Shown in pieces: positions 17,092-46,600 of a DNA stretch of 64,000 nt (positions are counted from its first letter, which is position 1; each line of letters begins with the position of its first letter). The stretch covers positions 385,120 to 449,119 of the forward strand of contig JACKAB010000007.1 in the NCBI GenBank assembly GCA_020635285.1, written 5' to 3'. The DNA is from Ignavibacteriales bacterium. GTDB taxonomy: Bacteria; Bacteroidota; Ignavibacteria; Ignavibacteriales; Melioribacteraceae. The notes under the pieces are model-generated. The model did not search any database, was not told the origin of the DNA, and worked only from the letters and a program-made list of their open reading frames with translations. The position numbers and the translations under genes were made by a program.

Positions 17092-18665
17092 TCAAAATAT
17101 TATTTCTGTCATTAATATTTATAGATGTTTTAAAAGCTCAAATTTCACCCGGCGATTTGAGTAATGCTCATGCAGAATTTGAAGGAATTAGTAATTGTAC
17201 AAAATGTCATGACTTAGGGAAATCAGTTTCAAAAGCAAAATGCTTAAACTGCCATACAGAAATAATTGATTTAATAAACGAAAATAGAGGTTATCACCTA
17301 CAAAAAGAAGTAATTCAAAAAGATTGCTGGGTTTGTCACGGGGAACATTTTGGAAGAAATTTTCAAATAGTAAAATTTGATGAAAAGAATTTTGATCATG
17401 ATAAAAGTGGATTTGAACTAAAAGGAAGTCATAAAAAGTTAGAATGTAATAAATGTCATAAAGCCGAATTTATCACAATAGAAAAATTTAAGAAAAAAGA
17501 AAAAACATTTATAGGCTTAACTCCGCAATGCAAAACCTGTCACGAAGATGTTCATCAAGGAACTCTTGATGACAATTGTGCAACTTGCCACAATGAAGAA
17601 AAATTTAAACCCGCAATTAATTTTAAACATGATAACACACAGTTCAAGCTTACGGGAACTCACTTAAAAGTAGATTGTGAAAAATGTCATGTTAAGGAGA
17701 ATAGAAATAACAAAACGTTTCAAAAATTTGCTGATGTAAAATTTAATAGTTGCAATTCGTGTCATAAAGATTTTCACCAGGGTAAATTTGGTAATGAATG
17801 TGAAACTTGTCACAATACAAATTCATTTAATGAAGTAAATGTTTTAAATGGATTTGATCATTCCAAAACTAATTTTCCCTTATTGGGTAAGCACAATAGA
17901 GTTAAATGCGAAAATTGTCATAAAGAAAGTTTAACAAGTAAACCTAAATTTGCTAAATGTTATGATTGTCATGAAGATTTTCATAAAGGTGAATTTATTA
18001 AAAATAATATTCAGACAGACTGCAAAGAATGCCATAATGAAAAAGGCTTTTCACCTTCTCAGTTTACAATTGAAATGCATAACAAAACCAGTTTTGAATT
18101 GATAAATTCCCATGCAGCAATTCCTTGTATATCGTGTCACTTAAAAGAAGAAAGTTGGAAATTTAGAATCAGTGGCGAAAAATGTATCTCATGCCATTCA
18201 AACATCCATGAAAGTGAAATTGGCGCAGATTTTTTTGATGAAAATAATTGTCAATTTTGTCACTCAACATTATCTTGGAAAAATGTAAAGTTTGATCATA
18301 CCACGACCGAGTTTGAGTTAATAGGCAAACATAAATCAACGGAATGCAGAGATTGTCATTTCACTTTTGATGGATCAAAAATAATTGCTCAAAAATTTAA
18401 GCAACTAAATAGTAATTGTACACAATGTCACAATGATATTCATATTGGACAATTTATTGAGGATGGAAAAGAGCTTTGCAAAAACTGTCATACTTCATTT
18501 AATTGGCAGCCAAGTTTATTCGATCATAGTAAAACAAGATTTGCATTAGCTGGTGCACATCTAAATGTAAAATGTGAACAATGCCATAAACAAATTGTTG
18601 AAAATGATATTACTTTTATCAAATATAAAATTGAGGATGTAAGATGCATAAGTTGTCATTCTTAA
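17079..18665 (+). CDS. multihaem c-type cytochrome, 20 CxxCH motifs
   Basis: I counted 20 CxxCH motifs in ORF 17157..18665 (CTKCH, CLNCH, CWVCH ... CEQCH, CISCH), with recurring F.H......L.G.H....C..CH units. A signal-like segment KTLIKILFLSLIFIDVLKAQ is in frame upstream back to 17079 with no in-frame ATG. An ATG at 17066 is one base out of frame, so the true start is uncertain. Confidence 0.85.
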   Translation: MKTLIKILFLSLIFIDVLKAQISPGDLSNAHAEFEGISNCTKCHDLGKSVSKAKCLNCHTEIIDLINENRGYHLQKEVIQKDCWVCHGEHFGRNFQIVKFDEKNFDHDKSGFELKGSHKKLECNKCHKAEFITIEKFKKKEKTFIGLTPQCKTCHEDVHQGTLDDNCATCHNEEKFKPAINFKHDNTQFKLTGTHLKVDCEKCHVKENRNNKTFQKFADVKFNSCNSCHKDFHQGKFGNECETCHNTNSFNEVNVLNGFDHSKTNFPLLGKHNRVKCENCHKESLTSKPKFAKCYDCHEDFHKGEFIKNNIQTDCKECHNEKGFSPSQFTIEMHNKTSFELINSHAAIPCISCHLKEESWKFRISGEKCISCHSNIHESEIGADFFDENNCQFCHSTLSWKNVKFDHTTTEFELIGKHKSTECRDCHFTFDGSKIIAQKFKQLNSNCTQCHNDIHIGQFIEDGKELCKNCHTSFNWQPSLFDHSKTRFALAGAHLNVKCEQCHKQIVENDITFIKYKIEDVRCISCHS

Positions 18666-21600
18666 TATTTACATTTTTCATATCCTCATTGATATTTTCT
18701 CAATCTCCCCATGGAGATAACTTTAACTTTGATTGCGAGGAATGTCATTCAACTGAAAACTGGAAAATAGATTTTAAAACTTTAGATTTTGATCATTCCG
18801 AAACTAACTTTGAATTAATTGGTCAACATAAAATATTAGATTGTCAATCATGCCACCAAACATTAAAGTTTTCAGAAACAAAAAATAATTGTCTTGATTG
18901 TCACAGTAATGTTCATCAAAATACAGTTGAACCTAATTGCCAGCAATGTCATAACTCAAACTCTTGGGTTGTTACTAATATTGATGAAATGCATGATATG
19001 AGCAGATTTCCTTTGCTGGGTGAACACAAACGTGCTGATTGCAAACAATGCCATGCATCTGTTAATAATTTGTTGTTTCCCACTATTGGGGTTCAATGTA
19101 TTGATTGTCATTTGAGTGATTATCAGTCAGCACAAAATCCAAATCATATTTCTGCCGGTTTTTCAAAAGAGTGCGAAGATTGTCATCAAGTAACTGATTT
19201 AGAATGGAATAAGGCAAATGTTACTCACGACTTTTTCCCTTTAAACGGTGGTCATAAAATCAGCAATTGTTTTGATTGTCATTCACAAAATACTTTTGAG
19301 GGATTAACTCAAGAATGTGTAACGTGTCATCAGAAAGATTTTAATTCCACCAGTGATCCAAATCATGTTAGCGCTGGATTTACAACTAATTGTATTGAAT
19401 GCCACACAACTAATCCGGGTTGGCAGCCTGCATCATTTAAGGAACATGATAATTTCTTCGCTCTAATTGGCGCGCATAAAGTAATTGAAAATGATTGTGC
19501 AAAATGTCATACAACCGGCTATTCTAATACACCGGATCAATGCTATGATTGTCATCAATCAAATTATAATAGCACAAAAGATCCTGCACATCAAGCAGCG
19601 GGATTTGGAACTGATTGTGAGAGTTGTCATAATACAGTAGCTTGGGAGCCAGCAAGTTTTGACCACGATAATCAATTTTTCCCAATTTATTCTGGCAAAC
19701 ATAATAACCAATGGAATGATTGTGCAGATTGCCATACTAATTCAGCAAACTTCCAAGTTTTTGCGTGTGTTACGTGTCATGAACATAATCAGTCAGATAT
19801 GGATAAAGAGCATAGTGGAATTGGAGGATATACTTATGAAAGCACAGCTTGCCTTGCTTGTCATCCAACCGGAAATAAAGAAGATGGATTTAATCATTCA
19901 ACAACTAATTTCCCATTGCTTGGTGCTCATACAACTATTCAATGTTCTGATTGTCATTCTGCTGGATATCAAGGAACATCAATGGAATGTAGTTCTTGCC
20001 ATTTAGCTGATTTTCAAAGTTCTACCAATCCAAATCACCAACAAATTGGTTTAGATCAAAATTGTGAACAGTGCCATACAACTAATCCAGATTGGCAGCC
20101 GGCAACTTTTCCAGTTCATAATGATTTTTATTTATTAGAAGGCGCTCATGCAAGTATAGCCAGCGATTGTAATAGTTGTCATTCAGGTGATTACGTGAAT
20201 ACAGGTAATCTTTGTATTGATTGCCATACCAATGATTATAACAATACCAGCAATCCCAACCATCAATCAACTGGTTTTGGAACAGATTGTGAAACTTGTC
20301 ATTCTCAAAATGCTTGGCAGCCTGCAACCTTTGATCATGATAATCAGTTCTTCCCAATATACTCGGGCAAGCACAATAATGAATGGAATGAATGTTCAGA
20401 CTGCCATACTGCATCAACAAATTTTCAAGTTTTTGAGTGTATTAACTGTCATGAACATAATAAAACAGATACAGATGATAAGCATAAAGAAGTTCAAGGT
20501 TATCAATATATCAGCACAGAATGTTTAGCATGTCACCCAACAGGAACATCAGATGGCGCTTTTAATCATGCTACTTCGGCTTTCCCATTAACAGGCGCGC
20601 ACACAACTCAAGAATGTTCAGATTGTCATCAAGGTGGATATTCTAATGTCTCATCGGAGTGTTCTGAATGCCATCAGCAAGATTTTAATAGTTCTCTTGA
20701 ACCAAACCATGTTGAAGCAGGAATTGAAATTGCTTGTGTAGATTGTCACAATACTGTGGCTTGGAAACCTTCAACATTCAATCATGAAACAACCGGCTTT
20801 GAATTGATTGGAGGACACAATTTGAATCAATGTTCTAATTGTCACTCAGGAAGCACATCAAATGCTACATCAATTTGTTATGATTGTCATCAAAGCGATT
20901 ATACAACGGCACCTGAACATACTGCACAAAGTTATCCGCAAACTTGTCAGGATTGTCATAATACAACAAATTGGAATCAAACAACTTTTGATCATAATAA
21001 CACTAACTTTGCATTAACAGGAGCTCATTTAAATACAACTTGCGCTTCTTGTCATACATCTGGATATGCTGGAACTTCTACAGAATGCAATACTTGTCAT
21101 CAGACAGATTTTACAAGCGCGGTTAATCCAAATCATTCGGAAGCTGGAATTTCAAATAAGTGTGAAGATTGCCATTCTACAAATGCTTGGAATCCATCTG
21201 AATTTAATCATTCAGCGACCGGATTTGAGTTAATTGGAGGACATAATTTATCTCAATGTTCAAGCTGTCACAATGTAAGCACAGCAAATGCAACTCCAGA
21301 ATGTTACTCTTGTCATTCTGCAAATTATAGCAACGCACCAGATCATGTTTCACAGAATTATCCAAAGACATGTCAAGATTGTCATAACACCACAAATTGG
21401 AATGACACAAACTTTGATCATAACAATACAAATTTTGCATTAACCGGTTCTCACACTAACGTGAATTGCAATGATTGTCATTCAGCTGGATACTCTGGTA
21501 CTTCTACTGTTTGTGCTGATTGCCACCTTACTGATTTTAACAATTCATCAAATCCAAATCATAGCAGTTTAAGTCTATCAACAAATTGTGAAACTTGTCA

Positions 21601-22123
21601 TACAACAAATCCAAATTGGCAACCAGCGACTTTTGCTGTACATAATGATTTTTACGTTTTGGAAGGTGCGCATGCATCAATATCAAATGATTGTGCAACT
21701 TGTCATAATAGTAATTATAACAATACTTCAAATACATGCTACGGTTGTCATCAAAGCGATTATAATGCCACAACAAATCCAACTCATTCAAGCTCGGGTT
21801 TTGGAACTGCATGTGAAGATTGCCATTCACAAAATGCTTGGCAACCTGCAACTTTTGATCATGATGGGCAGTACTTTCCAATATATTCTGGTAAGCATAG
21901 GCAAGAATGGAATGCCTGCACAGATTGTCATACAAATCAATCTGACTATTCCATATTCTCTTGTTTAGAATGTCATGAACACAACAAGACAAAAATGGAT
22001 GATAAGCATAAAGAGGAAAATGGATATTCTTATACTAGTGCTGCTTGTTATGATTGTCATCCACAAGGGAAATCTAACGCTCAACTTGAAAGATTCTTTC
22101 GAATAGAGAGTATTCAGAGATGA
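18644..22123 (+). CDS. giant multihaem c-type cytochrome, 1159 aa, 46 CxxCH motifs, modular
   Basis: Signal peptide MHKLSFLIFTFFISSLIFSQ. I counted 46 CxxCH motifs. Modules of ~150-165 aa recur (NP.H...GF...C..CH, FDHD.QFFPIYSGKH, CHEHN). The start overlaps the upstream cytochrome by 22 nt. Confidence 0.9.
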   Translation: MHKLSFLIFTFFISSLIFSQSPHGDNFNFDCEECHSTENWKIDFKTLDFDHSETNFELIGQHKILDCQSCHQTLKFSETKNNCLDCHSNVHQNTVEPNCQQCHNSNSWVVTNIDEMHDMSRFPLLGEHKRADCKQCHASVNNLLFPTIGVQCIDCHLSDYQSAQNPNHISAGFSKECEDCHQVTDLEWNKANVTHDFFPLNGGHKISNCFDCHSQNTFEGLTQECVTCHQKDFNSTSDPNHVSAGFTTNCIECHTTNPGWQPASFKEHDNFFALIGAHKVIENDCAKCHTTGYSNTPDQCYDCHQSNYNSTKDPAHQAAGFGTDCESCHNTVAWEPASFDHDNQFFPIYSGKHNNQWNDCADCHTNSANFQVFACVTCHEHNQSDMDKEHSGIGGYTYESTACLACHPTGNKEDGFNHSTTNFPLLGAHTTIQCSDCHSAGYQGTSMECSSCHLADFQSSTNPNHQQIGLDQNCEQCHTTNPDWQPATFPVHNDFYLLEGAHASIASDCNSCHSGDYVNTGNLCIDCHTNDYNNTSNPNHQSTGFGTDCETCHSQNAWQPATFDHDNQFFPIYSGKHNNEWNECSDCHTASTNFQVFECINCHEHNKTDTDDKHKEVQGYQYISTECLACHPTGTSDGAFNHATSAFPLTGAHTTQECSDCHQGGYSNVSSECSECHQQDFNSSLEPNHVEAGIEIACVDCHNTVAWKPSTFNHETTGFELIGGHNLNQCSNCHSGSTSNATSICYDCHQSDYTTAPEHTAQSYPQTCQDCHNTTNWNQTTFDHNNTNFALTGAHLNTTCASCHTSGYAGTSTECNTCHQTDFTSAVNPNHSEAGISNKCEDCHSTNAWNPSEFNHSATGFELIGGHNLSQCSSCHNVSTANATPECYSCHSANYSNAPDHVSQNYPKTCQDCHNTTNWNDTNFDHNNTNFALTGSHTNVNCNDCHSAGYSGTSTVCADCHLTDFNNSSNPNHSSLSLSTNCETCHTTNPNWQPATFAVHNDFYVLEGAHASISNDCATCHNSNYNNTSNTCYGCHQSDYNATTNPTHSSSGFGTACEDCHSQNAWQPATFDHDGQYFPIYSGKHRQEWNACTDCHTNQSDYSIFSCLECHEHNKTKMDDKHKEENGYSYTSAACYDCHPQGKSNAQLERFFRIESIQR

Positions 22124-23737: not shown

Positions 23738-24512
23738 ATACTTATTTCACCTTCCAAATAAAGAGCTGCATTGCCGGAAATTTTTACTCTTTTATCCAAA
23801 TATTCACAGAACAATTCACCGCCTCTTTTAGAAACTTGTAAAGCATTGAGTTTTGTTTTATTCAATCTTTTAGCCCAATAAGGAATTAACAAAGTGTGAG
23901 CATAGCCGGTAACTGGGTCTTCATCAATACCAACATCTGGTGCAAAAAATCGTGAAACAAAATCTACATCATTTCCTTGTGATGTAATTATTACTCCATG
24001 TGTGTTTAGTTTTAAAAAATCTTTTATTTGAGGTTTTAATTTCCTAACAATTTCTTCATTCTCAAAAACACAAATAGTTGATTTGTCGAATAAAATTTCA
24101 CTTGGTTTAACTCCTAATGCTGCGATTAAAATCTCATCAAACTCAATTGGCTTGGGATTTCTTGCCGGAAAATTTAAACTGATTAATTCATTTTCCTTCG
24201 TTACAATTAATTTGCCGCTTCTTGAGTTAAACTCAATTTTGTTTTCTGTAAAATTCAAAATATTGAATAATACAAATGAAGATGCCAGCGTGGCATGACC
24301 ACATAAATCAACTTCGCTGGTTGGCGTGAACCATCTAATTCTATAACCAGAGTCTTCCAAAACAAAAAAGCAGTTTCGGCTAAATTATTTTCTGCAGCAA
24401 TGTTTTGCATCACCAAATCATTCAACCAATTTTCTAAAGGAACAACTGCTGCGGGATTTCCGTTAAAAATATTTTTTGTAAATGCATCTACTTGGTAAAG
24501 TTTTAATTTCAT
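23734..24512 (-). pseudogene. PhzF-family isomerase-like protein, one frameshift
   Basis: ORF 24255..24512 (MKLKLYQVDAFT..FNGNPAAVV...AAENNLAETAF) and ORF 23734..24360 (IRWFTPTSEVDLCGHATLAS...) together make a full-length PhzF-like protein. The frames overlap around 24300. Confidence 0.75.
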
Positions 24513-24601
24513 TGCTTACCCATTTATTTATAATTTTGAAAAACTATATTTATCAAATTACAAAAAATAATTGAGATTCTTATAATGACAAAACAAAAGA
24601 T

Positions 24602-26011
24602 ATGCCAATTTCTGAATTTAGAAAATATGGCCACGAGATGATTGATTTTATTGCAGACTATATTGATAATGTTGAATCAAAACCCGTATTAGCAAAAGTT
24701 AATCCCGGTGAAATAAAGGAAAACTTCCCCAAAGTCCGCCAGTAAAAAGTGAAAGTATGGAAGATGTTTTTAATGATATCAACAAAATTATTATGCCGGA
24801 ATTACTCATTGGAATCACCCAAACTTTATGGCGTATTTCAACTCAACTGCATCAATGCCGGGTATATTAGGAGAAATTTTAAGCGGAGCGTTTAACACAA
24901 ACGGAATGATTTGGAAAACGGCCCCTGCTTCAACTGAATTAGAAGAAGTTGTATTAGTTGGTTCCGGCAAATGCTTCAACTTCCACAAAAGTTTTTTGGG
25001 ATTATATATGACTTAGCTTCTGTAAGCTCAATGCATGCAATTGCCGCAGCTAGAGAAGAGGCAAAACAAAAATACCATAACTTTGATATTATAAAACTTA
25101 GACTTTATTGCTCCGAGCAAGCACATTCATCAATAGAGAAGGGAGCAATTACGTTGGGTTTACCATTATCATCAGTTGTGAAAATTAAAACTGATGAACA
25201 ATTTAGAATGATTCCTTCTGAGCTGAATAATGCAATTAGAGAGGATATTGAAAAAGAACTTCAGCCATTTTGTGTTGTTGCAACTGTTGGAACTACATCA
25301 ACAACTAGCATAGATCCAGTTGATGAAATTGTAAAAGTTTCTAAACAATATAATTTGTGGTTGCATGTGGATGCCGCTCATGCCGGCTCTGCAGCAATAG
25401 TTCCGGAAGTTAGACAAATTTTAAGCGGAGTTGAAGATGCGGATTCATTAGTTGTTAATCCGCACAAATGGCTTTTTGTTCCTATAGATTTAAGCGTTTT
25501 ATTTACGAGTAAACCTGAGGTAATAAAAAAAGCTTTTTCTATTGTGCCGGAATATTTGAAAACCGATGAAGAAGAAAAAGTTATTAATTACATGGATTAT
25601 GGAATTCAACTTGGCAGAAGATTTCGTTCGCTAAAATTGTGGTTTGTATTTCGTTATTTTGGAGTTGAAGGATTGCAAAATATTATTCGTGAACATTTGC
25701 GAATAGGAGAATTATTTGCTGATTTTATTGATCGAAACCCAAACTTTGAAAGATTGGCTCCAACTCCATTAAGTACAATATGTTTTAGAGCATTGCCAAA
25801 TAAGAAGATGAGCGAAAATCAGCTAAATGAATTCAATAAAAGATTAATGGATGAAATAAATAATTCTGGTAAATTATTATTAAGTCACACAAAATTAAAC
25901 GACAAATTTACAATTAGATTAACAATCTCGGGAATAAGAACAGAAGAAAAACACATTCTTCAAGCGTGGGAATTGATAAAAGAAAAGTTTAATATGTTAA
26001 TCCAAAACTAG
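24602..26011 (+). pseudogene. pyridoxal-dependent aromatic-amino-acid (DDC/TyrDC group II) decarboxylase, at least 3 frameshifts in the 5' third
   Basis: Stitched translation: MPISEFRKYGHEMIDFIADYIDNVESKPV ... GITHWNHPNFMAYFNSTAS ... then ORF 24971..26011 with NPHKWLFVPIDLS (PLP-Lys motif). Confidence 0.8.
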
Positions 26012-26715: not shown

Positions 26716-29700
26716 TTATTTTTTTGAGGATTTCTTTTCAGTAGAATTATTTCTCTTTACAACTGCAAATTTAGCAGCAGCTAAAGTTTCCCTATTAACT
26801 TTTTCCGTAATTTTCCCTCTGGTTATATCTTCAATATTTAAGTAACCATTCATCAATAATAACTGAAGAATCATATTATTTTCAATTGTCTCTCTACTAT
26901 AACCTTCTGCAATGTACAGCTTTTCACAATCTTTATAAAACTCATCAGCAAAATCTTGATTATTTGGCAAATCCATTAGCTGTTCATAGGTTTCTGTAAA
27001 TCCACTTAACTCAACATTTATATTAGGAGTAACAAGCAAGGGACTGAATCCGTGTTCTTTTTTAATTGGACAAAAACCTTTTATTGAACTCAAATCAACT
27101 TTTGCTTTTTCATCATCAATTCTAACAAATTCAGCTTTTCTCATTTGCTCTAATTGGAACAAGAAAAAATTATATCTGTTGACTTCTGAATTTTGTTTTA
27201 CTCCATTAAAAATATTCGGATATTTTTCTTTAACAATGTTTCTGATGAAGTTTTTATTCTTGTTAATTTCCGGTTTAGAAATTCTTACTTCCTGAATCAT
27301 CTTAACCATATCTTTTGCAGCGGCTTGTGGACCAGTAATTTCTTTTCCTTCCCTTCCTAAATCAGTTGAGAGTAATCCAAATTGTATATGTCTTCCAGCT
27401 CCTTTTTCTTTCACTCCGCCTTTCAAAATATTAACAAGATGTTTCATCTGTTCATATTGATTTTCTTCAGCAATAAATGGTTGTCCGGCTGGTGTGCTTG
27501 CCAATGAATTGAATAAATTGCTAAAAATGGCTCTGTCCAAAATAATATCTTTAGCTGAAACAGTTTCATCATTAGTTTTTGTGCAGCTGGCAATAAATCT
27601 ATTTTTTATGATGTCAAACTTTACAGAATCTATTGAATAATTATTGCCATCTGAATGTTTAAAAGTTTTTTTATCGAACAATTTATTTACTACATCTTCA
27701 ATATCAATTTTATCAATCAATTTATAAGACGAACACAAATAAAATTTGCCTGTAAATTCATCTTTTTCCCAATCGAGTACATCATCAAGGTAATTGCCGT
27801 GTTTATCCATAACTTCAACAACATTTTTATCATTTGTGTAACGCAATAACGTTCTTTGAAAATTAGGATTATCCGAACTGGTTGCTTTTTCTTTCCGTTC
27901 ACCATGTGAATGTCTGTAAAGCAAAAAGTTTTCCGGATTTTTGAAAACCGTAATTCCAGCTTCTTGCCGGCCGAAGTTACTTGCAGTCAACATTATATCA
28001 ATTTTATAGGGCATTCTGATATCACATAATCCGCTTATTGTACTGCGACTGTTTAAGTCTTCAACGTTGCTGTCTGCGGCACTTTGAAATAACGAATTGT
28101 AATACTTAATAAATTCCGGATCAAAATCTGTCACTCTTGAAAAGTCGCCTTGTTCAGTTCCAATTCCATATAAATTTCCTTCAGAATCAGGAAAGACGTA
28201 AAACATATCGCCGGCAATTAATTTGATAGAACGAATTCCCGGTAAATCTTTTTTAAGCCACTTTAACATCATTGCTGCCAGCATTTCAGATTTTCCAACA
28301 CCACTATCACCATCAACTTGAATTACGAAAATACTTCCGTCTTCTTCTTCAACAGCAAACAAAGAACCGTGAACTGGCATTCCCCCCATTTCCTTAACTT
28401 TTTCATTCATCATGGTAAGCCAAGGTTTTTTGATGTTACCGAAATAATCAGTCTTCGATTTGAGAGGAGTAACTAAAGTTTTAATATTTCCGTTTGGTCC
28501 TTTAATATTGAAGTAACCAATTTGCGGGTAAGAAATTACTTTTTCCGGAGCTCCATAAAATAAAATTACATCTGGCACAAAATCTTTTAAGTCATTTAAT
28601 CCAACTTCGTCCGCAGTAATTAATCGGTGGTTATCTGTCAAATATTTTATATACGATTTTTGAATTATATATAAAACTTTTACCAAACCATGCTTAATAA
28701 TTTTGCATCTGTAATCATTGGCATCCATATTATCAACAAATTTTGCCAAACGCTTCTTGAAGAAAACCGCAGTAGGTTTAGTATCTAAATTTTTAATGTA
28801 TTGATTAACGTCATCATAATTTCTTTCTAAAGTTTTGTCATCTTCTCTGTCAATTCTGTGCATTGCATATTCACGTTTCTTTGCGTCTGTGGCAATTCTT
28901 GTATGGCTTTGCACAGGTTGCTCAGATGCAATTACACCGCATTTTTTCATCACATCTTCAATCCATTTTAACGAACCATTGTCATAAGAATCAAGTGCAT
29001 TGCTGCTAAAATCATAATTTCTGTGCAGAGTAATTCCATGTTGAATCATCTCGTTAATAGAAGAGTTTTGCTGTATGTAAGAAGTTTCAACAAACTTTAT
29101 TAAAGAATGTGTGTATTTATCGTAGTATTCAGTTGAACGAGTTTTGTTGATAATTCTAACAAATAGTAAAATTATATCACGTGTAGTTTGATGTAATTTA
29201 TCTTGTGTGATTTTTTCATTTTTATACCGGAAAATTTCACCAAAGACTCCATCAATTTCTGTTTGGATAATTTCAAAAATAAATTCTTCAGTAAATAATT
29301 TTACTTCGCCATTTTCTTTTTCAGATAATTTATTTGATAGAAGTTGAACCTTCTTATTCAGCATATTTAAAAAGTTATCTTCCTTGTTTAACAAGTAAAA
29401 ATTAAGAAGCTGATTTGAAGTTGTTAAATTTTTACTAAAAATATTATTCATTAATGATTGATGAACAATTCCATCTAACTTAGCTGATAATAAATTTGGT
29501 TCTAATTTTTTAAGAATTTTATCAAGAAAAATATTTGCATACTGTTTTAAGTTAAATTCGTTTACAGAAAATCCAACAACTTCTTTAAACTTCTCAACGG
29601 AAGTATTAACAAGCTGTTCATAACTTGGTTCAATAATTTCTTGTTCAAAAGGAAGATTAAAATGAAGTAATAATTCTTTAACAAATTTTCTTAAAATTAT

Positions 29701-30954
29701 ATTTGTTCCTTCAAGCTTAGCAATATCAGCTGAGAAATTTTGAGAAGCATCTAGAGCCATAATTTTTACTTTTGAATCTGAAAAAAGAATCTTTTCCATT
29801 TCAATAAGTATTTCGGTCATTATAATTCTTTCTTCGGGATCATCAAGTACATGGTCGTTGGGCTTGTAATCCATTTTGTTATTAATATATTTTTGGATGG
29901 TAGGCTTGCCAAATTTATTAATAACTGTATTGAAATCTAAATTTTTAATTAGTGGAATTGATTTATAAATCTGAGGCAACAAATTTTCATAGATTTTTGA
30001 GAAAGCCTTACTTCGAATAAAACTTTCCAAATCTCTGCACTCACCAATATTTTCATAAAATTCAATAACAGCATTGGGTGATTTATTAATTGCATTAATT
30101 GTAACTCCGCAATCTTTTGGGAATGCATTGTAAAGCGACATAATATTGCTGATAGTTAAACTATTCTTTTTTTGCTTCTTAATATTTTTTATAATATTAA
30201 AATCACTAAGAATGTTTTTAATGAATTCCTTATCGGTTTGGTAAGAAAAAATTTCATCTAAAATATCATCCGAACGTTTTTCGCTATTATCGCAATTGGT
30301 TTTTTCAGTTTTAAATTTATCCCAATATTTCAAAACTATTCTTAAGGCATTTTCAAATTCTTTTTTGAAAACGTCATAACTTTTATCAGAGCCATGAATA
30401 TAATCGCCAATAGAAAATCGTAAAAATCCGGATTGATAAGGAATAACAGCTATTCCGCGCTCAGCAGCTAACTTTTTTGTAAACTTTTCTAAATCTTGAT
30501 AGAAGAAAAAGTCTTTTAATTTTAGATTAAAAAGGAATGAGCCATCAGATGGAAGAACCTCAATATTATCATTATTATTTTCACTAAGTATTGAAGCTGC
30601 AACTTCTTTAGCAAGTTTTAATCTCTTTAAAGATTCAGCGCCAAAATTTTTATTAACTCTAAATTTGTTTATTTCGGAAACCAAATGTTTTTGATAATAA
30701 CTAAAAAACGGTTCGCTTTTATACTTAAAATCATCTGGCAAATCTAGAACATCAAGTTTATCAAGAGAAGTCAGTTCGTCCAATAAAAATAAATGGAGCG
30801 GACTTCCTTCAAACGGAGAAAATCTTTTTATTGCTTTACCTTGTTTTACTATGGCTTTCTTATCGTTAAAACTTTCTATCTCATCAATAATATATTTCTC
30901 AATTCTTGCTTTTATTTTATAACGAGATGCTTCTTTTGGAAGTTCCCGTTCCAT
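26716..30954 (-). CDS. 1412-aa multidomain protein: aminotransferase C-terminal subdomain, long helical region, PEPCK/HprK-like P-loop phosphotransferase domain, C-terminal region; probably the 3' part of a ~1940-aa gene
   Basis: Near the N-terminus, ERGIAVIPYQSGFLRFSIGDY matches the small-domain pattern of class I/II aminotransferases. Mid-protein, TDYFGNIKKPWLTMMNEKVKEMGGMPVHGSLFAV...VIQVDGDSGVGKSEMLAAMM...IKLIAGDMF...GIGTEQGDFSRV...DPEFIKYY...ADSNV...KIDIMLTASNFG runs parallel, segment for segment, to ATP-dependent PEP carboxykinase as recalled (YGGEMKK..F.MMN...G...MHCS...GLSGTGKTT...LIGDDEH...EGGCYAK...EPEIY...ENV...VIFLTADAFG). Confidence 0.6.
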   Translation of the reverse strand: MERELPKEASRYKIKARIEKYIIDEIESFNDKKAIVKQGKAIKRFSPFEGSPLHLFLLDELTSLDKLDVLDLPDDFKYKSEPFFSYYQKHLVSEINKFRVNKNFGAESLKRLKLAKEVAASILSENNNDNIEVLPSDGSFLFNLKLKDFFFYQDLEKFTKKLAAERGIAVIPYQSGFLRFSIGDYIHGSDKSYDVFKKEFENALRIVLKYWDKFKTEKTNCDNSEKRSDDILDEIFSYQTDKEFIKNILSDFNIIKNIKKQKKNSLTISNIMSLYNAFPKDCGVTINAINKSPNAVIEFYENIGECRDLESFIRSKAFSKIYENLLPQIYKSIPLIKNLDFNTVINKFGKPTIQKYINNKMDYKPNDHVLDDPEERIIMTEILIEMEKILFSDSKVKIMALDASQNFSADIAKLEGTNIILRKFVKELLLHFNLPFEQEIIEPSYEQLVNTSVEKFKEVVGFSVNEFNLKQYANIFLDKILKKLEPNLLSAKLDGIVHQSLMNNIFSKNLTTSNQLLNFYLLNKEDNFLNMLNKKVQLLSNKLSEKENGEVKLFTEEFIFEIIQTEIDGVFGEIFRYKNEKITQDKLHQTTRDIILLFVRIINKTRSTEYYDKYTHSLIKFVETSYIQQNSSINEMIQHGITLHRNYDFSSNALDSYDNGSLKWIEDVMKKCGVIASEQPVQSHTRIATDAKKREYAMHRIDREDDKTLERNYDDVNQYIKNLDTKPTAVFFKKRLAKFVDNMDANDYRCKIIKHGLVKVLYIIQKSYIKYLTDNHRLITADEVGLNDLKDFVPDVILFYGAPEKVISYPQIGYFNIKGPNGNIKTLVTPLKSKTDYFGNIKKPWLTMMNEKVKEMGGMPVHGSLFAVEEEDGSIFVIQVDGDSGVGKSEMLAAMMLKWLKKDLPGIRSIKLIAGDMFYVFPDSEGNLYGIGTEQGDFSRVTDFDPEFIKYYNSLFQSAADSNVEDLNSRSTISGLCDIRMPYKIDIMLTASNFGRQEAGITVFKNPENFLLYRHSHGERKEKATSSDNPNFQRTLLRYTNDKNVVEVMDKHGNYLDDVLDWEKDEFTGKFYLCSSYKLIDKIDIEDVVNKLFDKKTFKHSDGNNYSIDSVKFDIIKNRFIASCTKTNDETVSAKDIILDRAIFSNLFNSLASTPAGQPFIAEENQYEQMKHLVNILKGGVKEKGAGRHIQFGLLSTDLGREGKEITGPQAAAKDMVKMIQEVRISKPEINKNKNFIRNIVKEKYPNIFNGVKQNSEVNRYNFFLFQLEQMRKAEFVRIDDEKAKVDLSSIKGFCPIKKEHGFSPLLVTPNINVELSGFTETYEQLMDLPNNQDFADEFYKDCEKLYIAEGYSRETIENNMILQLLLMNGYLNIEDITRGKITEKVNRETLAAAKFAVVKRNNSTEKKSSKK

Positions 30955-30962
30955 TCTGTCTT

Positions 30963-32546
30963 TTATCTTTTTGCAAGCTGAGCGGTTTCCAAAGTATTAA
31001 CAAGCATATAAAGAGAATTGGTATTTCCTTTTTCAATTCCATTCTGCTGTTTAGCAAAATCGATAACATCTTTTTTTGCCGGTGTTGCAACCAATGATCC
31101 TAAACGACTTCCCGTTGCCCCGAGATTTTTTGTTGTGGAAAGTGACGACACCGCACTGATATTGCTCAATGAAGAAATGTTATTCATTATGTAGCGAGAA
31201 ATTGTTCTCCACTTTGGCTCTTGCGGATTTTCAATTTTAACTGCGTCGCTGTAAGCTTCATCCAACAATAAAGTAATTTTGCTATTGTTTAAAAATTTGA
31301 GAAACTTAATTAATGAAACATTATTAAAGTCAGTATAGCCCGAAGGATTTGAAGGATCATTAATTATTATTGTTAAGTTTTCGCAGAATTTATCCCACAA
31401 ATTTCCTGTATCATCAAATAGTTGAAAATTAATTTTCATTCTATTTAATCGTTGGTGTAGTCTTTCAAAATCTATTCTTCCAGTTTCATCCAGACCAATT
31501 TCCAAATCAAAAGGATTTATATCAAAGCGGTCCTCGGGAAATAAATCTTTATATTCCCATGAAGCTTCTTGGTTAAATAAAATATAGGGCATTAGAACGT
31601 TATCAGAAAGTATATCTCTAATAATCATCTGAACATCATCTGCAATAGTGGTGATTTCCAAATTGGCTAAATTGCTTACAAACTCTTTAATTATTTCTTT
31701 TTCTTCTGCTGTTCTTATTTCATACGAATCTTTTATTCCCAAATCAATGAGCAGATTGTTAAATCGCCCAGTATTATCAGACTCATTCTGCACTTTTGTA
31801 ATAAACTCTTTATACTTTTCTAAGAATAAATTAATCCCAAAGTTTTTATGAAAATGGTTTTTTAAAGTTCGCTGATAATTATCCGGAATAATATCAATAA
31901 CAGTTTTACACTTTTTAATAATTTTGGAGTTAAGCGGTTTTAATTTTCTTTGAAGTAAATAACTTCCGTAAGTTCTAATTTGTCCGCGCCCACCGCCTTC
32001 GACAATTGTTGCAATTTGCACTTGCTCAATGTTCGAATAAATATATGCTTTTGTTCTTGTTTCAAACTCAGAAATTAATGCTTTGTTTGTTTTTTGAAGT
32101 GACTTTGGATTTTTACAATTTTGAACAAGTACAATAAAATCGTGCAATTTTGTAATCGCGTACTTATCCTTAATAATTTGCTTAACAAAATGGTTAAACT
32201 TATACAGATTGAGATTCTTTAAATTATTCTCTGTTTCGCCAAGTTGCTCAAGCTCAAACTGTTTTAGCTCTTCTTCATAATCTGCAATTTTTTGTTCTGC
32301 GCAACTTCTAAAAGTTTCTAAGTTTTTGTCATTCACTTTATCTAAAATTAAGCGGAGGTTTAATTGACTATTAGCTAGAGCGCCTAATTTTTTTGTGTGA
32401 ACTTTATTTAATGTGTTTACAATTTTATTATGAAAACAAAAAACCAATGAAGTGTTTGTGCTTTTCGATTCTGGAGAATCATCAACCAACACAATTCTGG
32501 TTAAGTATGGAAACCATTTTTTATCATTGAAAATATTCTTTCTCAT
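30963..32546 (-). CDS. 527-aa protein: unknown N-terminal region plus class I/II PLP aminotransferase large domain with an insertion; probably the 5' part of the same gene as 26716..30954
   Basis: Motifs appear in the canonical order: IVEGGGRGQI, INDPSNPSG (N-P-x-N-P-x-G), LLLDEAYSD (DEAY), SLSTTKNLGATGSRLG (S-x-S-K...G-x-R-x-G, PLP lysine retained). The ORF stops 8 nt before the next ATG, inside an A5 run. Confidence 0.6.
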   Translation of the reverse strand: MRKNIFNDKKWFPYLTRIVLVDDSPESKSTNTSLVFCFHNKIVNTLNKVHTKKLGALANSQLNLRLILDKVNDKNLETFRSCAEQKIADYEEELKQFELEQLGETENNLKNLNLYKFNHFVKQIIKDKYAITKLHDFIVLVQNCKNPKSLQKTNKALISEFETRTKAYIYSNIEQVQIATIVEGGGRGQIRTYGSYLLQRKLKPLNSKIIKKCKTVIDIIPDNYQRTLKNHFHKNFGINLFLEKYKEFITKVQNESDNTGRFNNLLIDLGIKDSYEIRTAEEKEIIKEFVSNLANLEITTIADDVQMIIRDILSDNVLMPYILFNQEASWEYKDLFPEDRFDINPFDLEIGLDETGRIDFERLHQRLNRMKINFQLFDDTGNLWDKFCENLTIIINDPSNPSGYTDFNNVSLIKFLKFLNNSKITLLLDEAYSDAVKIENPQEPKWRTISRYIMNNISSLSNISAVSSLSTTKNLGATGSRLGSLVATPAKKDVIDFAKQQNGIEKGNTNSLYMLVNTLETAQLAKR

Positions 32547-32587
32547 ATTTTCAATTTTTACTATAAAGATACTTGTTGTATCTGATT

Positions 32588-33364
32588 CTATTTGTTTAAA
32601 TAGGTCATCGGCATTTTAAAATCAATTACTTTTACATCTTTGTTGTTAAAAATTTCTTCAGAAAGTAATTCCACAACTGTGTTTGAGCCACCGCCAACAA
32701 CTGTTTTTATGAAACCATCTAAACCTTTAAAATTTACCGTTAAGAAAGTTCTATTTAGAAAATCTTGTTTTTCGGCATTGGTCGTGTAATGAGAACTTTG
32801 AATTATCATTTGCTCAAGCACATCCATAAAATAATTCCATTGTGCTTCCTCAATATCGCCGTTTACCCCAATTACATCTCTGAATTTTCTTAATTCAGTT
32901 ACATCATCACCCAAAACCATTTTGTACATTAGGTCTAAATGAGCTTCTGTAACCGGCGGAGTTCCCACAGAATAATCATGTGAATTAAGAATGTTAAGTG
33001 TTTGCTCTTTTGTTTGTGAATCAACAGCTTCAGTATCAATAAAATATTTTAGTTTATTTTCAAAACTTTGTTTTTGTGTTCTATATTGAAACGCTTTCGA
33101 ATCTTCATGCGGGAAGATCATTAAAGAAACATCGGTATATCCAGGAATGGATTCTTTTAGTTCTAATATGTATTTATCTATTTCTGCTAATTGTTTTGAG
33201 GGATCAATTGGTTCTTCATAACAAATCCTTACAAAGTTTTTAAGCAGATTAAGCGTATCATTGGGCATAAAATTTTCAGCCCGTTCGCCCAGTAATAAGA
33301 ATAAATTTATATAATCATGTGCTTCAGATCGCAATTTTATTTTTGGTTTTCCAGTTATTTGCAT
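32588..33364 (-). CDS. hypothetical 258-aa protein, first gene of the aminotransferase/PEPCK-like operon
   Basis: Clean ORF on the same strand, 41 nt upstream of the next gene. I recognise no motif. Confidence 0.5.
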   Translation of the reverse strand: MQITGKPKIKLRSEAHDYINLFLLLGERAENFMPNDTLNLLKNFVRICYEEPIDPSKQLAEIDKYILELKESIPGYTDVSLMIFPHEDSKAFQYRTQKQSFENKLKYFIDTEAVDSQTKEQTLNILNSHDYSVGTPPVTEAHLDLMYKMVLGDDVTELRKFRDVIGVNGDIEEAQWNYFMDVLEQMIIQSSHYTTNAEKQDFLNRTFLTVNFKGLDGFIKTVVGGGSNTVVELLSEEIFNNKDVKVIDFKMPMTYLNK

Positions 33365-38032: not shown

Positions 38033-38824
38033 CAATTCTTGAAGAAATAAATGAAGTAAAAAAAGAAGAAGTAAAAAAACTTAGAAAAGAATATACCCTT
38101 TCACGATTCACTGATTCAGAAAATTTTAATAAGAAGAGATTAGAATTTGGAAAAGCTATATCCAATCAAGGTAAAATATCAATTATCGCAGAGATTAAAA
38201 AAGCCAGTCCATCAAAAGGAATTATAAAGGAAGATTTTAATCATCTTAAAATAGCAGAAACCTATATGAAATATGGTGCTGATGCAATTTCTATTTTAAC
38301 TGATGTAAACTTTTTTTAAGGGAAGCATAAAATTCTTAAATGATATTGCTAAATACAAATCTGTGCCGCTGTTAAGAAAGGATTTTATAATTGATGAATT
38401 TCAAATTTATGAAGCCAAAGCTAACGGAGCGGATGTAATCTTTTTAATTGCTGAATCCCTTTCTGCAAATCAAATAAATGAATTAACTGCTGCAGCAATT
38501 GAAACAGATTTAGAAGTCTTATTGGAATTACATTCGGTGGATCAAATTGAGAAAATTAATTTTAAACAGAATAGAATAATTGGAATTAATAATCGTGATC
38601 TAAAATCCTTCAAAGTTGATTTGAACACTGTGAATATAATTTCAGAATTCATTCCAAAAGAAAATATTTTAGTCGCAGAAAGCGGAATTAAAACCAAAGA
38701 AGACATTGATTTTATTAAACAAACTAGAGCAAACTCAATTTTAGTCGGTGAACATTTAATGTCATCAAATAATACAGCGGATTCATTACGACAACTTGTT
38801 GATTGGTGCAGACATGAGAGTTAA
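38029..38824 (+). CDS. trpC: indole-3-glycerol-phosphate synthase, one frameshift at a T7 run (38311-38317)
   Basis: ORFs 38029..38319 and 38363..38824 join if one T is removed: ...[41 protein letters not shown]... Canonical motifs are [12 protein letters not shown] and LRKDFI. Confidence 0.85.
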
Positions 38825-39411
38825 AGTTTGCGGAATTACAAATATTGAAGATGCTATACTTTGCTATAATCTCGGAGCGGATGCTATCGGATTTATATTT
38901 TACGAAAAAAGTAAAAGATATATCAAACCTGAAGAGGCCAAAATAATTATTAGTGAATTACCCGCATTTATTTTAAAAGTTGGAGTATTTGTAAATGAAA
39001 CTCCACAACTAATAAATGAAGTGGCAAAAGACATAAAACTAAATGCAGTTCAATTACACGGTGATGAAACACCTCAAGATATTGATAATATTGATTTGCC
39101 CGTAATTAAAGCTTTTAGAGTTGAGTTGATGATGAATTTGATTATGATGTTCTAACTCAATATAAAAATGTACTTTTCTCTTAGATACTTTTAATAAGAA
39201 TGAATTTGGCGGCACCGGAGAAAAATTTAATTGGAATAAAATTCCCAAAGAAATAAAAAGTAAAATAATTCTTGCTGGCGGAGTATCAATTGAAAACTTA
39301 GAAAATATTTACAAGCAGATTAATCCAGCTGCTATTGATGTTTCTTCATCATTAGAAATAATACCCGGTAAAAAAGACAAAAAGAAAGTTGAATTATTTT
39401 TAAAAAATTAA
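38814..39411 (+). CDS. trpF: phosphoribosylanthranilate isomerase, about 2 frameshifts (39125-39180)
   Basis: [10 protein letters not shown]...GADAIGFIF...KSKRYI...VQLHGDE, then after frame changes LLDTFNKNEFGGTGEKFNWNKIP...ILAGGVSIENL...IDVSSSLE. Confidence 0.8.
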
Positions 39412-43628: not shown

Positions 43629-46600
43629 ATGACTCTTAAACTTATAACTTATAGTTACATATTGCTACTTTGCTTAAACCCACTTTTTGCACAGAACAAG
43701 ATTTTAATAAACGAATTATTATCATCAAATATTAACGGATTAGTTGATAATGAATCTGGCGAATATTCTGATTGGATTGAACTTTATAATCCAAATGATT
43801 CATTGGTTGATATTTCTGGTTTTTACCTTTCTGATAAACATGAAGACCCATTTTTGTGGAGATTTCCTAATAATACTTTTATTGATTCAAACTCGTTTTT
43901 AATTGTTTGGGCTGATGATAAAAATTATGAACTGCATACTAACTTTAAACTTAGTAATGATGGCGAAAAATTATTTCTATATTCTAAAGATTCAGTTTTA
44001 GTTGACTCAATAACTTATGGTAAACAACGCGATGATGTTTCTGTTGGCAGAGATACAAGTAATTTCGAATGGTTATTTTTTGATGAACCAACACCTGGGA
44101 AAATGAATTTGACAAAAAGGGTAAGACCAATAACAAACTTTCTGATAAACCAATATTTTCAATTGAAAGCGGATTTTATTCATCAAGTGTAATTCTAGAA
44201 ATCACCTCCGAAGATAGTAGTGAAATTTATTATACCTTAGATGGCTCGACTCCTTTCAAATCATCAGCACAATTATATACAGAACCAATTAATATTGATT
44301 CAACTTCAATAGTATCCGCAATTTCTATTGAACAAAACAAACTTTCCAGCAACGTAGTTTCAAAATCATTTTTTATTGATGTGGATACAGAACTGCCCGT
44401 AATTTCTATAACAACCGACCCGAAAAATCTTTGGGATGATAATATCGGAATTTATACAAAGGGAACTAATGGCATAAGTTTTTGGAGTGTAAAGGCTAAT
44501 TATTGGCAAGAATGGGAACGACCGGCAAAAGTTGAATTTTTTGAAGATGACAAAACAATAGCATTTGAATTAAATGCCGGAATATCTATAAATGGAGCTA
44601 GAAGAAATATGCTCCAAAAGTCATTAAGAATTTTTGCTAGAGATAAATACGGAGCCCCTTCAATTAATTATAAAATATTTCCGGATAAAGAAATAAGAAA
44701 TTTCACTTCACTTGTTTTAAGGAATGGCGGCTACCCCGAATTTATTTCAACATTGTTTAGAGATGGATTTATCCAAACATTAATTTCAAATGAAATGGAT
44801 ATTGATTATCAAGCTTACAGACCGAGCATTCTTTATTTAAATGGCAAGTATTGGGGAATTTATAATATTCGCGAAAAACAAAATGAAGAATACTTAAAAG
44901 AAAATAATGGAGTGGATCCAGATAATTTAGATATTCTTGAAAACAATATGGTAGTTGTTGAAGGTGATAGTAACCATTACCAAAATATGATTGATTTTAT
45001 TTCAGCAAATGATTTATCTATTCAAGAAAATTATGATTCAGTGAAAAATTTTATGGAGATTGATAATTTTATTAATTATCAAATTGCACAATTATATATA
45101 GCAAATGCTGATTGGCCTGGAAATAATATTAAATTTTGGCGACCCAAAACTAACGATGGGAAATGGAGATGGCTAATATTTGATCTTGATGGAGGTTTTG
45201 GATTATGGCACAATTATGATTTTAATTCAATAGAATTTGCAACTGAAGAAAACAGTTCAGAATGGAATAACGCTCCTTGGTCAACATTCCTTTTTAGAAA
45301 TTTATTAAAGAATCAAGAATTTGCAGATGAATTTGTTCAAAGGTTTGCCGCATATTTAAGCTATAGTTTTAACAGAGAAGATGTAATAGAGTTAATGACT
45401 TCATTCCAAAATAGAATAGAAAAAGAGATTCCCAATCACATAAATAGATGGGCTCCTAACTGTTCAATTACTAATCCGGAATCTAAAGATGGCTGCATGT
45501 TTGAAGATATTTCAACATGGTACGAAAATATAAATATAGTTAAAGAATTTGCAGTCAAAAGACCAAATTATGTAATGGAACATTTGATGAATTACTTTTC
45601 CATTTCTGATACAATAAAAGTTTTAGTTTCTTCAAATAGTACTGAAGGTGGAAATGTTTTTGTTAATGAAGTTAATTCCAAGTTTGGTGTTGAGGCTAAA
45701 CTTTTTAGCGAGAAAAAAATAACATTTCTTGCTAAACCAAAAGCCGGATATAGATTCGTTGGATGGAAGGGCGATATTACTGCAAAAATTCCAACTTTAG
45801 AAATATTACGACAAGATGATTTTTCTATTGAAGCAGTTTTTCAACCGATAAATAATTCAGTAGTTCCTTCAATTATAAATAGTGATTTGGTTCTAACTGC
45901 AGGTAATAGTCCGTATTATACAGAGGATGATATTTATATTTATGAAGATGCAACTCTTACAATTGAACCTGGAGTTGAATTAAATTTATCAGCAGAAAAA
46001 AGTATTTATGTTTATGGTAATATAGAAATGTTTGGTATCGAAGAAGATCCTATCTTAATAAAATCCTCAGTAACTGGCATTAATTGGGGGTCAATTAATT
46101 TTGTTAATGCAAAGAAAAAATCAAAAATATTCCATACAAAAATAAGTGGTACTAGTAATGGTAAAGATAAAATTGATCAAATCGGGGGGATATCCAGTTT
46201 CAATTCTGATTTAGAATTGAACTATGTTGAAATGGATAATGTACAATTCCCAATTTTTATACAGTATGGAAATTTCGTAATGAGAAACAGTAAAATTCAC
46301 ACGGAAGTCACTTCCGATTTTGTGAATGTTAAATATGGCAAAGCTGTAATTGAAAATTGCGAGTTTATTGGAAACCTTGCTCCGGATACTGATGCTATTG
46401 ATTATGATGATGTTAATGCTGGGATAATAAGAAGAAATAAAATTCATAGTTTTTATGGTGATAATAGTGATGCTATTGATATTGGAGAAGGAGCTAAAGA
46501 TATTTTAATAGAAGAAAACTTAATCTATAATTGTTCAGATAAAGGTGTCTCTATTGGCCAAGAATCAACCGCAATTATAAAAGGTAACGTAATTGCTAAT

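Follow-up and report, generated by a model that had tools for sequence, protein, structure and literature searches.

A 2,216-residue protein of Ignavibacteriales joining a class-I aminotransferase fold and a PEPCK-like module in a single gene

What kind of protein is encoded by the three consecutive open reading frames (ORFs) of 258, 527 and 1,412 aa that occupy the minus strand at positions 26716–33364 of a 64,000-nucleotide stretch of an Ignavibacteriales bacterium genome (contig JACKAB010000007.1 of assembly GCA_020635285.1, positions 385,120 to 449,119; the whole stretch is referred to below as the window), and what reaction might it carry out? These ORFs were originally predicted to form an operon of three genes, in which a 258-aa leader protein is followed by a split protein of ~1,940 aa that fuses an aminotransferase fold to a P-loop region resembling phosphoenolpyruvate carboxykinase (PEPCK). 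The fusion of the two folds is borne out by Pfam, Foldseek and hhalign, and the motifs on which it was based are present and invariant across 90 homologues, with similarities far beyond chance (Pfam E 4.6e-9, Foldseek probability 1.0, hhalign E 1.4e-6). The operon is not borne out, and the three frames are almost certainly one gene, for a protein of 2,216 residues that we refer to as the giant. We put at about even the chance that the giant is a cytoplasmic enzyme whose aminotransferase and PEPCK-like modules are joined at oxaloacetate.

With one A put back into each of two homopolymer runs, the sequence reads as an uninterrupted ORF of 2,216 codons, whose product matches a 2,212-aa protein (P0001) from a Melioribacteraceae metagenome-assembled genome (MAG) from end to end at 84% identity. 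As P0001 starts as the 258-aa ORF and continues as the 527-aa and then the 1,412-aa ORF, what looked like a leader protein belongs to the giant itself, as its N-terminal part. Between the frames lie two 1-nt deletions, both in homopolymers (Table 1). At frameshift 1 the window reads GATTTTAAAA/TGCC where relatives have DFKNADDLFKQIE, and at frameshift 2 it reads GCAAAAA/GATAAAAGACAGAATG where relatives have LAKKIKDRMERE (the slash marks the junction); the apparent TAA stop at 30963–30965 is a product of the second deletion. Outside these two sites the 6.6 kb of the giant ORF are free of stop codons. Taken unrepaired, the ORF map does give the appearance of three genes, but the homologues inspected are single, fused proteins of ~2,210 aa with the 258-aa segment as part of them, and each junction is a homopolymer deletion of one nucleotide, so that the three-gene operon is ruled out and we give it next to no credence.

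The window is syntenic with a locus of an Ignavibacteriae MAG (L085), in which the gene order is trp operon, sigma-70, giant gene, pyridoxal phosphate (PLP) decarboxylase, PhzF and multihaem cytochromes. The window copies of trpC, trpF, PhzF and the PLP decarboxylase are also frameshifted, their counterparts in L085 being intact, and the breaks in these neighbours sit at T6–T7 runs where inspected. The window assembly is error-prone at homopolymers, and because the neighbouring genes are frameshifted at homopolymers too, the two breaks in the giant gene are probably single-base sequencing or assembly errors. Two disruptions within one gene and several disrupted neighbours could also mean genome decay, in which case the frameshifts would be genuine and the window copy a decaying pseudogene in the source organism. 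We regard this as unlikely, since the breaks inspected, those of the giant gene, trpC and PhzF, are at A/T homopolymers, which is the signature of sequencing error, the biosynthetic trp genes are disrupted in the same way, and the giant gene is otherwise free of stops and close to an intact orthologue.

The first of the two modules is a class-I (fold-type I) PLP aminotransferase by fold. It matches Pfam Aminotran_1_2 (PF00155) with 36.4 bits, above the gathering score of 19.7, the match being confined to profile positions 127–244. When an AlphaFold2 model of residues 1–1100 (pLDDT 83, pTM 0.83) was compared with the PDB by Foldseek, all 50 top matches were class-I fold-type-I PLP enzymes, mostly aminotransferases, and included 2x5f, ACC synthase, HisC, KAT II and YbdL (target-normalised TM-score, TMt, 0.41–0.58; probability 1.0). 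The class-I fold, with its large and small domains, is predicted to be complete, and in the model it crosses frameshift 2, in agreement with the original suggestion that the small domain continues beyond the ORF boundary. Residues GGGR 457–460, N673, D702, Y705, S743, K746, R754 and R983 are invariant in 90 sequences and all of them are retained in distant giants (~30% identity), the lysine that had been noted as present in the window being invariant in the orthologues. From GGGR 457–460 to R983, and by motif correspondence rather than superposition, we take these residues to provide the phosphate loop, the O3' Asn, the pyridine-N Asp, the stacking/O3' Tyr, the Schiff-base Lys, the phosphate Arg and the alpha-carboxylate Arg.

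The module shares fold-type I, the PLP-site Asn, Asp, Tyr, Ser, Lys and Arg and the alpha-carboxylate Arg with class-I aminotransferases such as aspartate aminotransferase (AspAT) subgroup I-gamma, Sar2028 of S. aureus (2x5f), ACC synthase and HisC. It differs from them in being fused and in its size, ~580 residues as against ~400, owing to two large helical insertions (residues ~480–590 and ~782–930). The closest profile by hhalign is an AspAT-type enzyme (98.5% probability, E 3e-15, 230 columns), and the best NCBIfam models, GntC, TyrAT and CobD (E 1e-5 to 1e-6), are all far under their cut-offs. The top structural match is 2x5f, and an enzyme of its type also neighbours one of the stand-alone PEPCK-like genes described below. 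Specific descent from the 2x5f/PRK08637 type was considered and rejected, as the AspAT type matches better (98.5% versus 81%), and we claim no specific ancestry. A PDB sequence search with the 1,412-aa ORF alone returned no matches, and one with the full-family profile returned aminotransferases only, not PEPCK, such that the kinase module had to be recognised by fold search. By analogy, the aminotransferase module probably works as a dimer.

For the second module, an AlphaFold model of residues 1017–2216 (pLDDT 78, pTM 0.66) gave 50 top PDB matches by Foldseek, every one of them a PEPCK (E down to 4.9e-5, probability 1.0). The alignments extend over 238–599 columns and cover both PEPCK domains, beyond the P-loop domain, and the P-loop region is thus found within a PEPCK fold, as predicted. 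The best structural matches are GTP-dependent PEPCKs (rat cytosolic 4ywb/2qf1, C. glutamicum 2zci and Polaromonas 9e35), with E 5e-5 to 1e-3, probability 1.0 and ~340–475 columns for most of the best-scoring, at 9–14% identity, TMt ~0.25–0.32 and root-mean-square deviations of 6–15 Å. A merged profile of the giant and stand-alone families aligned globally by hhalign with E. coli PckA (b3403, sequence taken from NC_000913.3) at 81% probability and E 1.4e-6 over 394 columns, spanning PckA residues 1–466; the core family alone gave E 1e-4 and the stand-alone family E 1.6e-5.

The likeness to ATP-dependent PEPCK (PckA, PF01293) extends from the two-domain fold to the order of the motifs, which in both proteins is Y-x-G-x-x-K-K, MMN, H-[CG]-S, the P-loop G-x-S-G-x-G-K-[TS], a hydrophobic strand ending in Asp, N-[TS]-R, [IL]-x-L-T-A-x-x-F-G and a lid segment. 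Thus DYFGNIKKP...VHGS...GDSGVGKSE of the giant aligns with YGGEMKKG...MHCS...GLSGTGKTT of PckA. The segment DYFGNIKKPWLTMMNEKVKEMGGMPVHGS of the giant family is matched by a 28-residue segment of E. coli PckA that covers Y207, K212, K213 and H232; GDSGVGKSE against GLSGTGKTT covers S250, K254 and T255 (the last as Ser); LIAGDM against LIGDDE covers the kinase-2 Asp; LNSRST against TENTRVS covers R333; IMLTASNFG corresponds to the strand IFLTADAFG; and GERKEKATS corresponds to the mobile lid. The positions corresponding to those of PckA vary little or not at all within the core family, the distant giants and the stand-alone family; the G, K, S and E of the Walker A loop are invariant across giants and stand-alone proteins, and the R333 counterpart (N-S-R-S-T) is conserved everywhere examined. 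Differences from PckA lie in the GDSGVGKSE form of the P-loop, in a single kinase-2 Asp, in an overall identity of ~19% that fails the family model thresholds, and in the placement of the module inside a 2,216-aa protein. Very large PEPCKs have a precedent in the PPi-dependent enzyme of ~130 kDa, in which lobes are added to a conserved core; it uses PPi and is not known to have a Walker A loop. What sets the giant apart from it is a canonical P-loop and an added aminotransferase, and PPi-PEPCK is absent from the top 50 Foldseek matches.

The giant belongs to a conserved, uncharacterised family. A search with the 1,412-aa ORF returned 352 proteins, of which the best 120 are almost all 2,207–2,286 aa long and the top match is 84% identical; the database label of these homologues is only 'aminotransferase class I/II-fold PLP-dependent enzyme'. 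When one genome per species was scanned, 271 species genomes encoded a relative of the query, and among the 80 loci kept the carriers are Ignavibacteriales/Melioribacteraceae, Calditrichaceae and many Bacteroidales (Marinilabilia salmonicolor, Ancylomarina euxinus, Draconibacterium, Odoribacter, Rikenellaceae, Salinivirgaceae and Marinifilaceae). Nearly the whole protein is very highly conserved, the C-terminal 1,200 aa being 53–83% identical among Ignavibacteriales/Melioribacteraceae, Bacteroidales and Calditrichaceae. An exhaustive HMMER search with these C-terminal 1,200 aa against 1.84 billion cluster representatives resolved three groups, namely the core family, at least 16 distant giants (2,008–2,217 aa, 27–33% identity), and a family of stand-alone proteins of ~500–635 aa in which the match is limited to the kinase region.

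The stand-alone family (P0211–P0268), in its ~550–635-aa members, is the closest relative of the giant's kinase module, with 29–40% identity over ~150–300 residues, and it appears to be uncharacterised as well. A metagenome scan gave at least 600 pattern matches, of which at least 557 stretches encode a relative, human gut assemblies included; 80 loci were kept (within L089–L171). Both families have DYFG-x-KK, HG[AS], GDSG-x-GKSE, DM, GTE-x-G-x-F-x-R and N-x-R, the stand-alone consensus being DYFGYxKK, GDSGAGKSE, IFDDMG and GTEIGAFVRLDDL. Unlike the giant, the stand-alone proteins keep the DD pair and lack the aminotransferase module, which is often encoded by a neighbouring gene instead. Their Pfam PEPCK_ATP score falls just under the threshold (25.2 versus 26.5 bits), and one example, MBD3385702.1 of a KSB1 bacterium, is named 'phosphoenolpyruvate carboxykinase'.

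Gene neighbourhoods provide further insight into what these proteins may do. The core-family gene is mostly monocistronic, and in 80 genome loci ORF clustering returned only antisense artefacts inside the gene, with no conserved synteny. Four of the five distant-giant loci inspected (L082, L083, L086 and L088) have in common a block of PPDK, glutamate dehydrogenase (GDH), three small unknown genes and an opposite-strand LTD/cohesin gene, except that PPDK is unseen in L086, where the fetched stretch ends inside the GDH gene. A 77–80-aa ORF lies directly upstream of the giant gene in all four, a same-strand asparaginase gene lies just upstream in two, and argG-argF-argC-argD-argB-argH follows the giant gene in one; at the fifth locus (L087) both the block and the small ORF are missing. 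Among stand-alone genes, that of the KSB1 bacterium lies in a tight asd-aspartokinase-PEPCK-like operon, and one on an Acholeplasmatales contig adjoins an aminotransferase fragment. We counted 39 same-strand neighbours of stand-alone genes within 200 nt, and the commonest Pfam family among them is Aminotran_1_2 (6 of 39), with Aminotran_5 also present (2 of 39). They include an AspAT-type enzyme, an orthologue of S. aureus 2x5f (E 5e-99) and an AspC/TyrB-like enzyme, together with aspartokinase upstream and threonine synthase (thrC) downstream. Since PF00155 genes make up ~0.3% of a bacterial genome, the enrichment is large, and it is visible only by family-level Pfam counts, BLAST clustering giving no dominant orthologous neighbour. 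Fusion in one lineage together with adjacency in others constitutes a Rosetta-stone argument for a common pathway. We regard the adjacency signal as suggestive, not decisive, and the association of relatives with aminotransferase and aspartate-family genes as indirect support for, not proof of, a role in the conversion of phosphoenolpyruvate (PEP), oxaloacetate and aspartate.

Because the catalytic residues of both modules are kept at ~30% identity, we think it rather probable that both are enzymes. The most likely model, and the simplest, is that the kinase module, dependent on nucleotide and metal, would interconvert PEP, CO2 and NDP with oxaloacetate and NTP, by the PEPCK chemistry of oxaloacetate decarboxylation to enolpyruvate on Mn2+ and phosphorylation of the latter by NTP, or by the reverse. 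The aminotransferase module would interconvert oxaloacetate and aspartate with the glutamate/2-oxoglutarate pair. The two are placed together at oxaloacetate because the product of an aspartate-type transamination is the substrate of PEPCK, and the unstable oxaloacetate could then be handed between sites on one polypeptide. Flux might be either anaplerotic and aspartate-forming or gluconeogenic from aspartate or asparagine. That the function lies specifically at the PEP-oxaloacetate-aspartate node is a tentative assignment, to which we give somewhat less than an even chance. Still more speculative, and on balance unlikely, is the broader proposal that PEPCK-like proteins of the GDSGxGKSE type, the stand-alone family included, are an unrecognised class of PEPCK or enolate kinase, of which the giants would be a channelling fusion with a new scaffold that either interconverts PEP, CO2 and glutamate with aspartate or makes a new phosphorylated keto-acid metabolite.

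Several observations weigh against the model of two modules joined at oxaloacetate. At E<=1 the giant has no match to Pfam PF01293; its NCBIfam match to PEPCK (PRK09344) is weak, at 13.5 bits against a cut-off of 806 (E 0.018), and the target-normalised TM-scores to PEPCK are low (~0.25–0.3). With scores this modest the modelled relationship to PEPCK is remote, and having the fold and most of the active-site residues but failing the family threshold, the kinase part is called PEPCK-like here and not PEPCK. One kinase-2 Asp is kept (AGDM) where PckA has two (D268 and D269). It had been the second Asp of the GDD motif that was thought to be lost, but position by position (LIAGDMF versus LIGDDEH) it is the first that is replaced, and in the profile alignment the matter is ambiguous, so that which Asp is replaced depends on the alignment used. 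The candidates for PckA R65 are R1490, K1496, K1497 and R1498, on which three alignments disagree, R1498 alone being conserved in distant giants. With respect to the neighbourhoods, a Pfam scan of 27 same-strand neighbours of the core family revealed no theme, the asparaginase loci are one lineage with a common synteny block, and by BLAST only three of the class-I aminotransferase adjacencies among the 39 are independent, and these lie in PEPCK-like lineages 42–52% identical to each other. The ~1,100 residues outside the modules are not obviously needed by a simple two-step pathway. Literature searches on the giant aminotransferase/PEPCK-like architecture found neither a paper nor a characterised member, which agrees with the original statement that no such protein was known.

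These same observations leave room for the architecture to serve other substrates, in a new PLP-plus-kinase pathway unrelated to aspartate. The aminotransferase could act on another amino or keto acid, and the PEPCK-like module could phosphorylate another enolate or carboxylate or be a decarboxylase or ATPase. The divergence of the aminotransferase module is too great for a specificity to be assigned, and the changed kinase-2 Asp, the ambiguous Arg65 counterpart, the large unexplained domains and core-family neighbours that carry no metabolic hint all fit such a pathway. However, the ligands of Mn2+ and of the oxaloacetate/PEP carboxylates are retained (the counterparts of Y207, K212, K213, H232 and R333), as is the alpha-carboxylate Arg of the aminotransferase (R983), and relatives are repeatedly associated with aspartate-family genes; we consider other substrates a minority possibility. 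More improbable by far is that the giant is a signalling or scaffold protein, composed of an HprK/P-like kinase or regulatory NTPase and a ligand-sensing pseudo-aminotransferase of the MocR/GabR kind. The C-terminal domain of HprK/P belongs to the PEPCK-like fold class, the Walker A loop GDSGVGKSE is identical to the HprK/P type (GDSGxGKSE), and such a role would suit the great size of the protein, its mostly monocistronic gene and its long helical regions. Membership of HprK/P is nevertheless rejected, there being no Pfam Hpr_kinase match and no HprK among the 50 best Foldseek matches, which cover both PEPCK domains. The giant, unlike HprK/P, has an N-terminal PEPCK domain and PEPCK-specific motifs, which are conserved and which HprK is not known to have, and it appears to lack the HprK signature loop. 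Pfam and NCBIfam detect no DNA-binding or signalling domain in the giant, and the PLP catalytic residues are invariant.

The ~1,100 residues outside the two modules (N-terminal 444, middle ~410 and C-terminal ~255) have no detectable homologue and presumably form scaffold, oligomerisation or regulatory parts. The N-terminal region consists of a helical domain, a small alpha/beta domain (~219–326) and long helices, and has no Pfam, NCBIfam or PDB sequence matches. The middle region, also without family matches, is a small alpha/beta unit followed by a long helical bundle, and residues ~1241–1400 are the most variable part of the protein. PADLOC returned no defence-system match.

Were the proposed role at the PEP-oxaloacetate-aspartate node correct, many anaerobic Bacteroidota, Ignavibacteriota and Calditrichota would have an undescribed form of enzyme at a central branch point of carbon and nitrogen metabolism, a natural fusion of two enzymes that could channel labile oxaloacetate. 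There would also be a divergent class of PEPCK beside the ATP, GTP and PPi types, a function for the stand-alone family of at least 557 metagenome stretches, and a correction to the present database annotation of the giants. The strongly conserved residues without homologues are a target for structural discovery.

Table 1. Positions in the window of the giant gene, its modules and motifs, and the frameshifted neighbours
Feature	Position	Strand	Basis or remark
Giant gene, ~2,216 aa	26716..33364	-	ORFs 32588-33364, 30963-32546, 26716-30954; single ORF when repaired
N-terminal region, residues 1-444	32034..33364	-	pLDDT mostly 85-95 (residues 1-1100 model)
Frameshift 1	32614..32617	-	Coding-strand A4 (+ strand T4); homologues need A5; DFK/NADDLFKQIE
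Aminotransferase module (class I, fold-type I), residues ~445-1025	30292..32033	-	Pfam PF00155, Foldseek, hhalign; spans frameshift 2
NDPSNPSG	31338-31361	-	
LDEAYSD	31245-31265	-	
STTKNLGATGSRLG	31098-31139	-	
Schiff-base lysine K746 codon (motif STTK)	31128..31130	-	Invariant in 90 core homologues and 16 distant giants
Frameshift 2	30968..30972	-	Coding-strand A5 (+ strand T5); homologues need A6; LAKKIKDRMERE
GFLRFSIG	30406-30429	-	
Middle region, residues ~1026-1439	29050..30291	-	Conservation profile, secondary structure of residues 1017-2216 model
PEPCK-like module, residues ~1440-1960	27487..29049	-	N- and C-domains of PEPCK fold; Foldseek, hhalign, weak NCBIfam
PEPCK-specific motif DYFGNIKKPWLTMMNEKVKEMGGMPVHGS	28363..28449	-	Counterparts of PckA Y207, K212, K213, H232; alignment, conservation
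DYFGNIKKP	28423-28449	-	
VHGS	28363-28374	-	
Walker A / kinase-1a loop GDSGVGKSE, residues 1686-1694	28285..28311	-	Aligns with PckA GLSGTGKTT
LIAGDMF	28201-28221	-	
IMLTASNFG	27970-27996	-	
C-terminal region, residues ~1961-2216	26719..27486	-	Mostly helical, highly conserved; homologue not recognised
Broken neighbours PhzF, PLP decarboxylase, trpC, trpF	24320-24390, 24590-26011, 38300-38400, 39120-39180		Comparison with L085

Elsewhere in the window, the minus strand carries a second very long ORF (2,322 aa; 7258–14226), in DNA whose GC content is ~26% and whose AT skew is strong. A cyclic-nucleotide-binding domain (E 5.5e-14) is found near its N-terminus and a STAS domain (E 7e-10) near its C-terminus, with ~2,100 residues between them that match no domain. 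Two proteins with a CotH-kinase domain and lamin-tail domains are encoded at 44381–47773 and 50489–52318 (plus strand), one of which also has a beta-helix and a C-terminal sorting domain of the type IX secretion system (T9SS). Adjacent genes at 17157–22123 (plus strand) encode two large multihaem c-type cytochromes (502 and 1,159 aa) that contain Cytochrome_C7 and MtrC/MtrF-like domains, which suggests a capacity for extracellular electron transfer.

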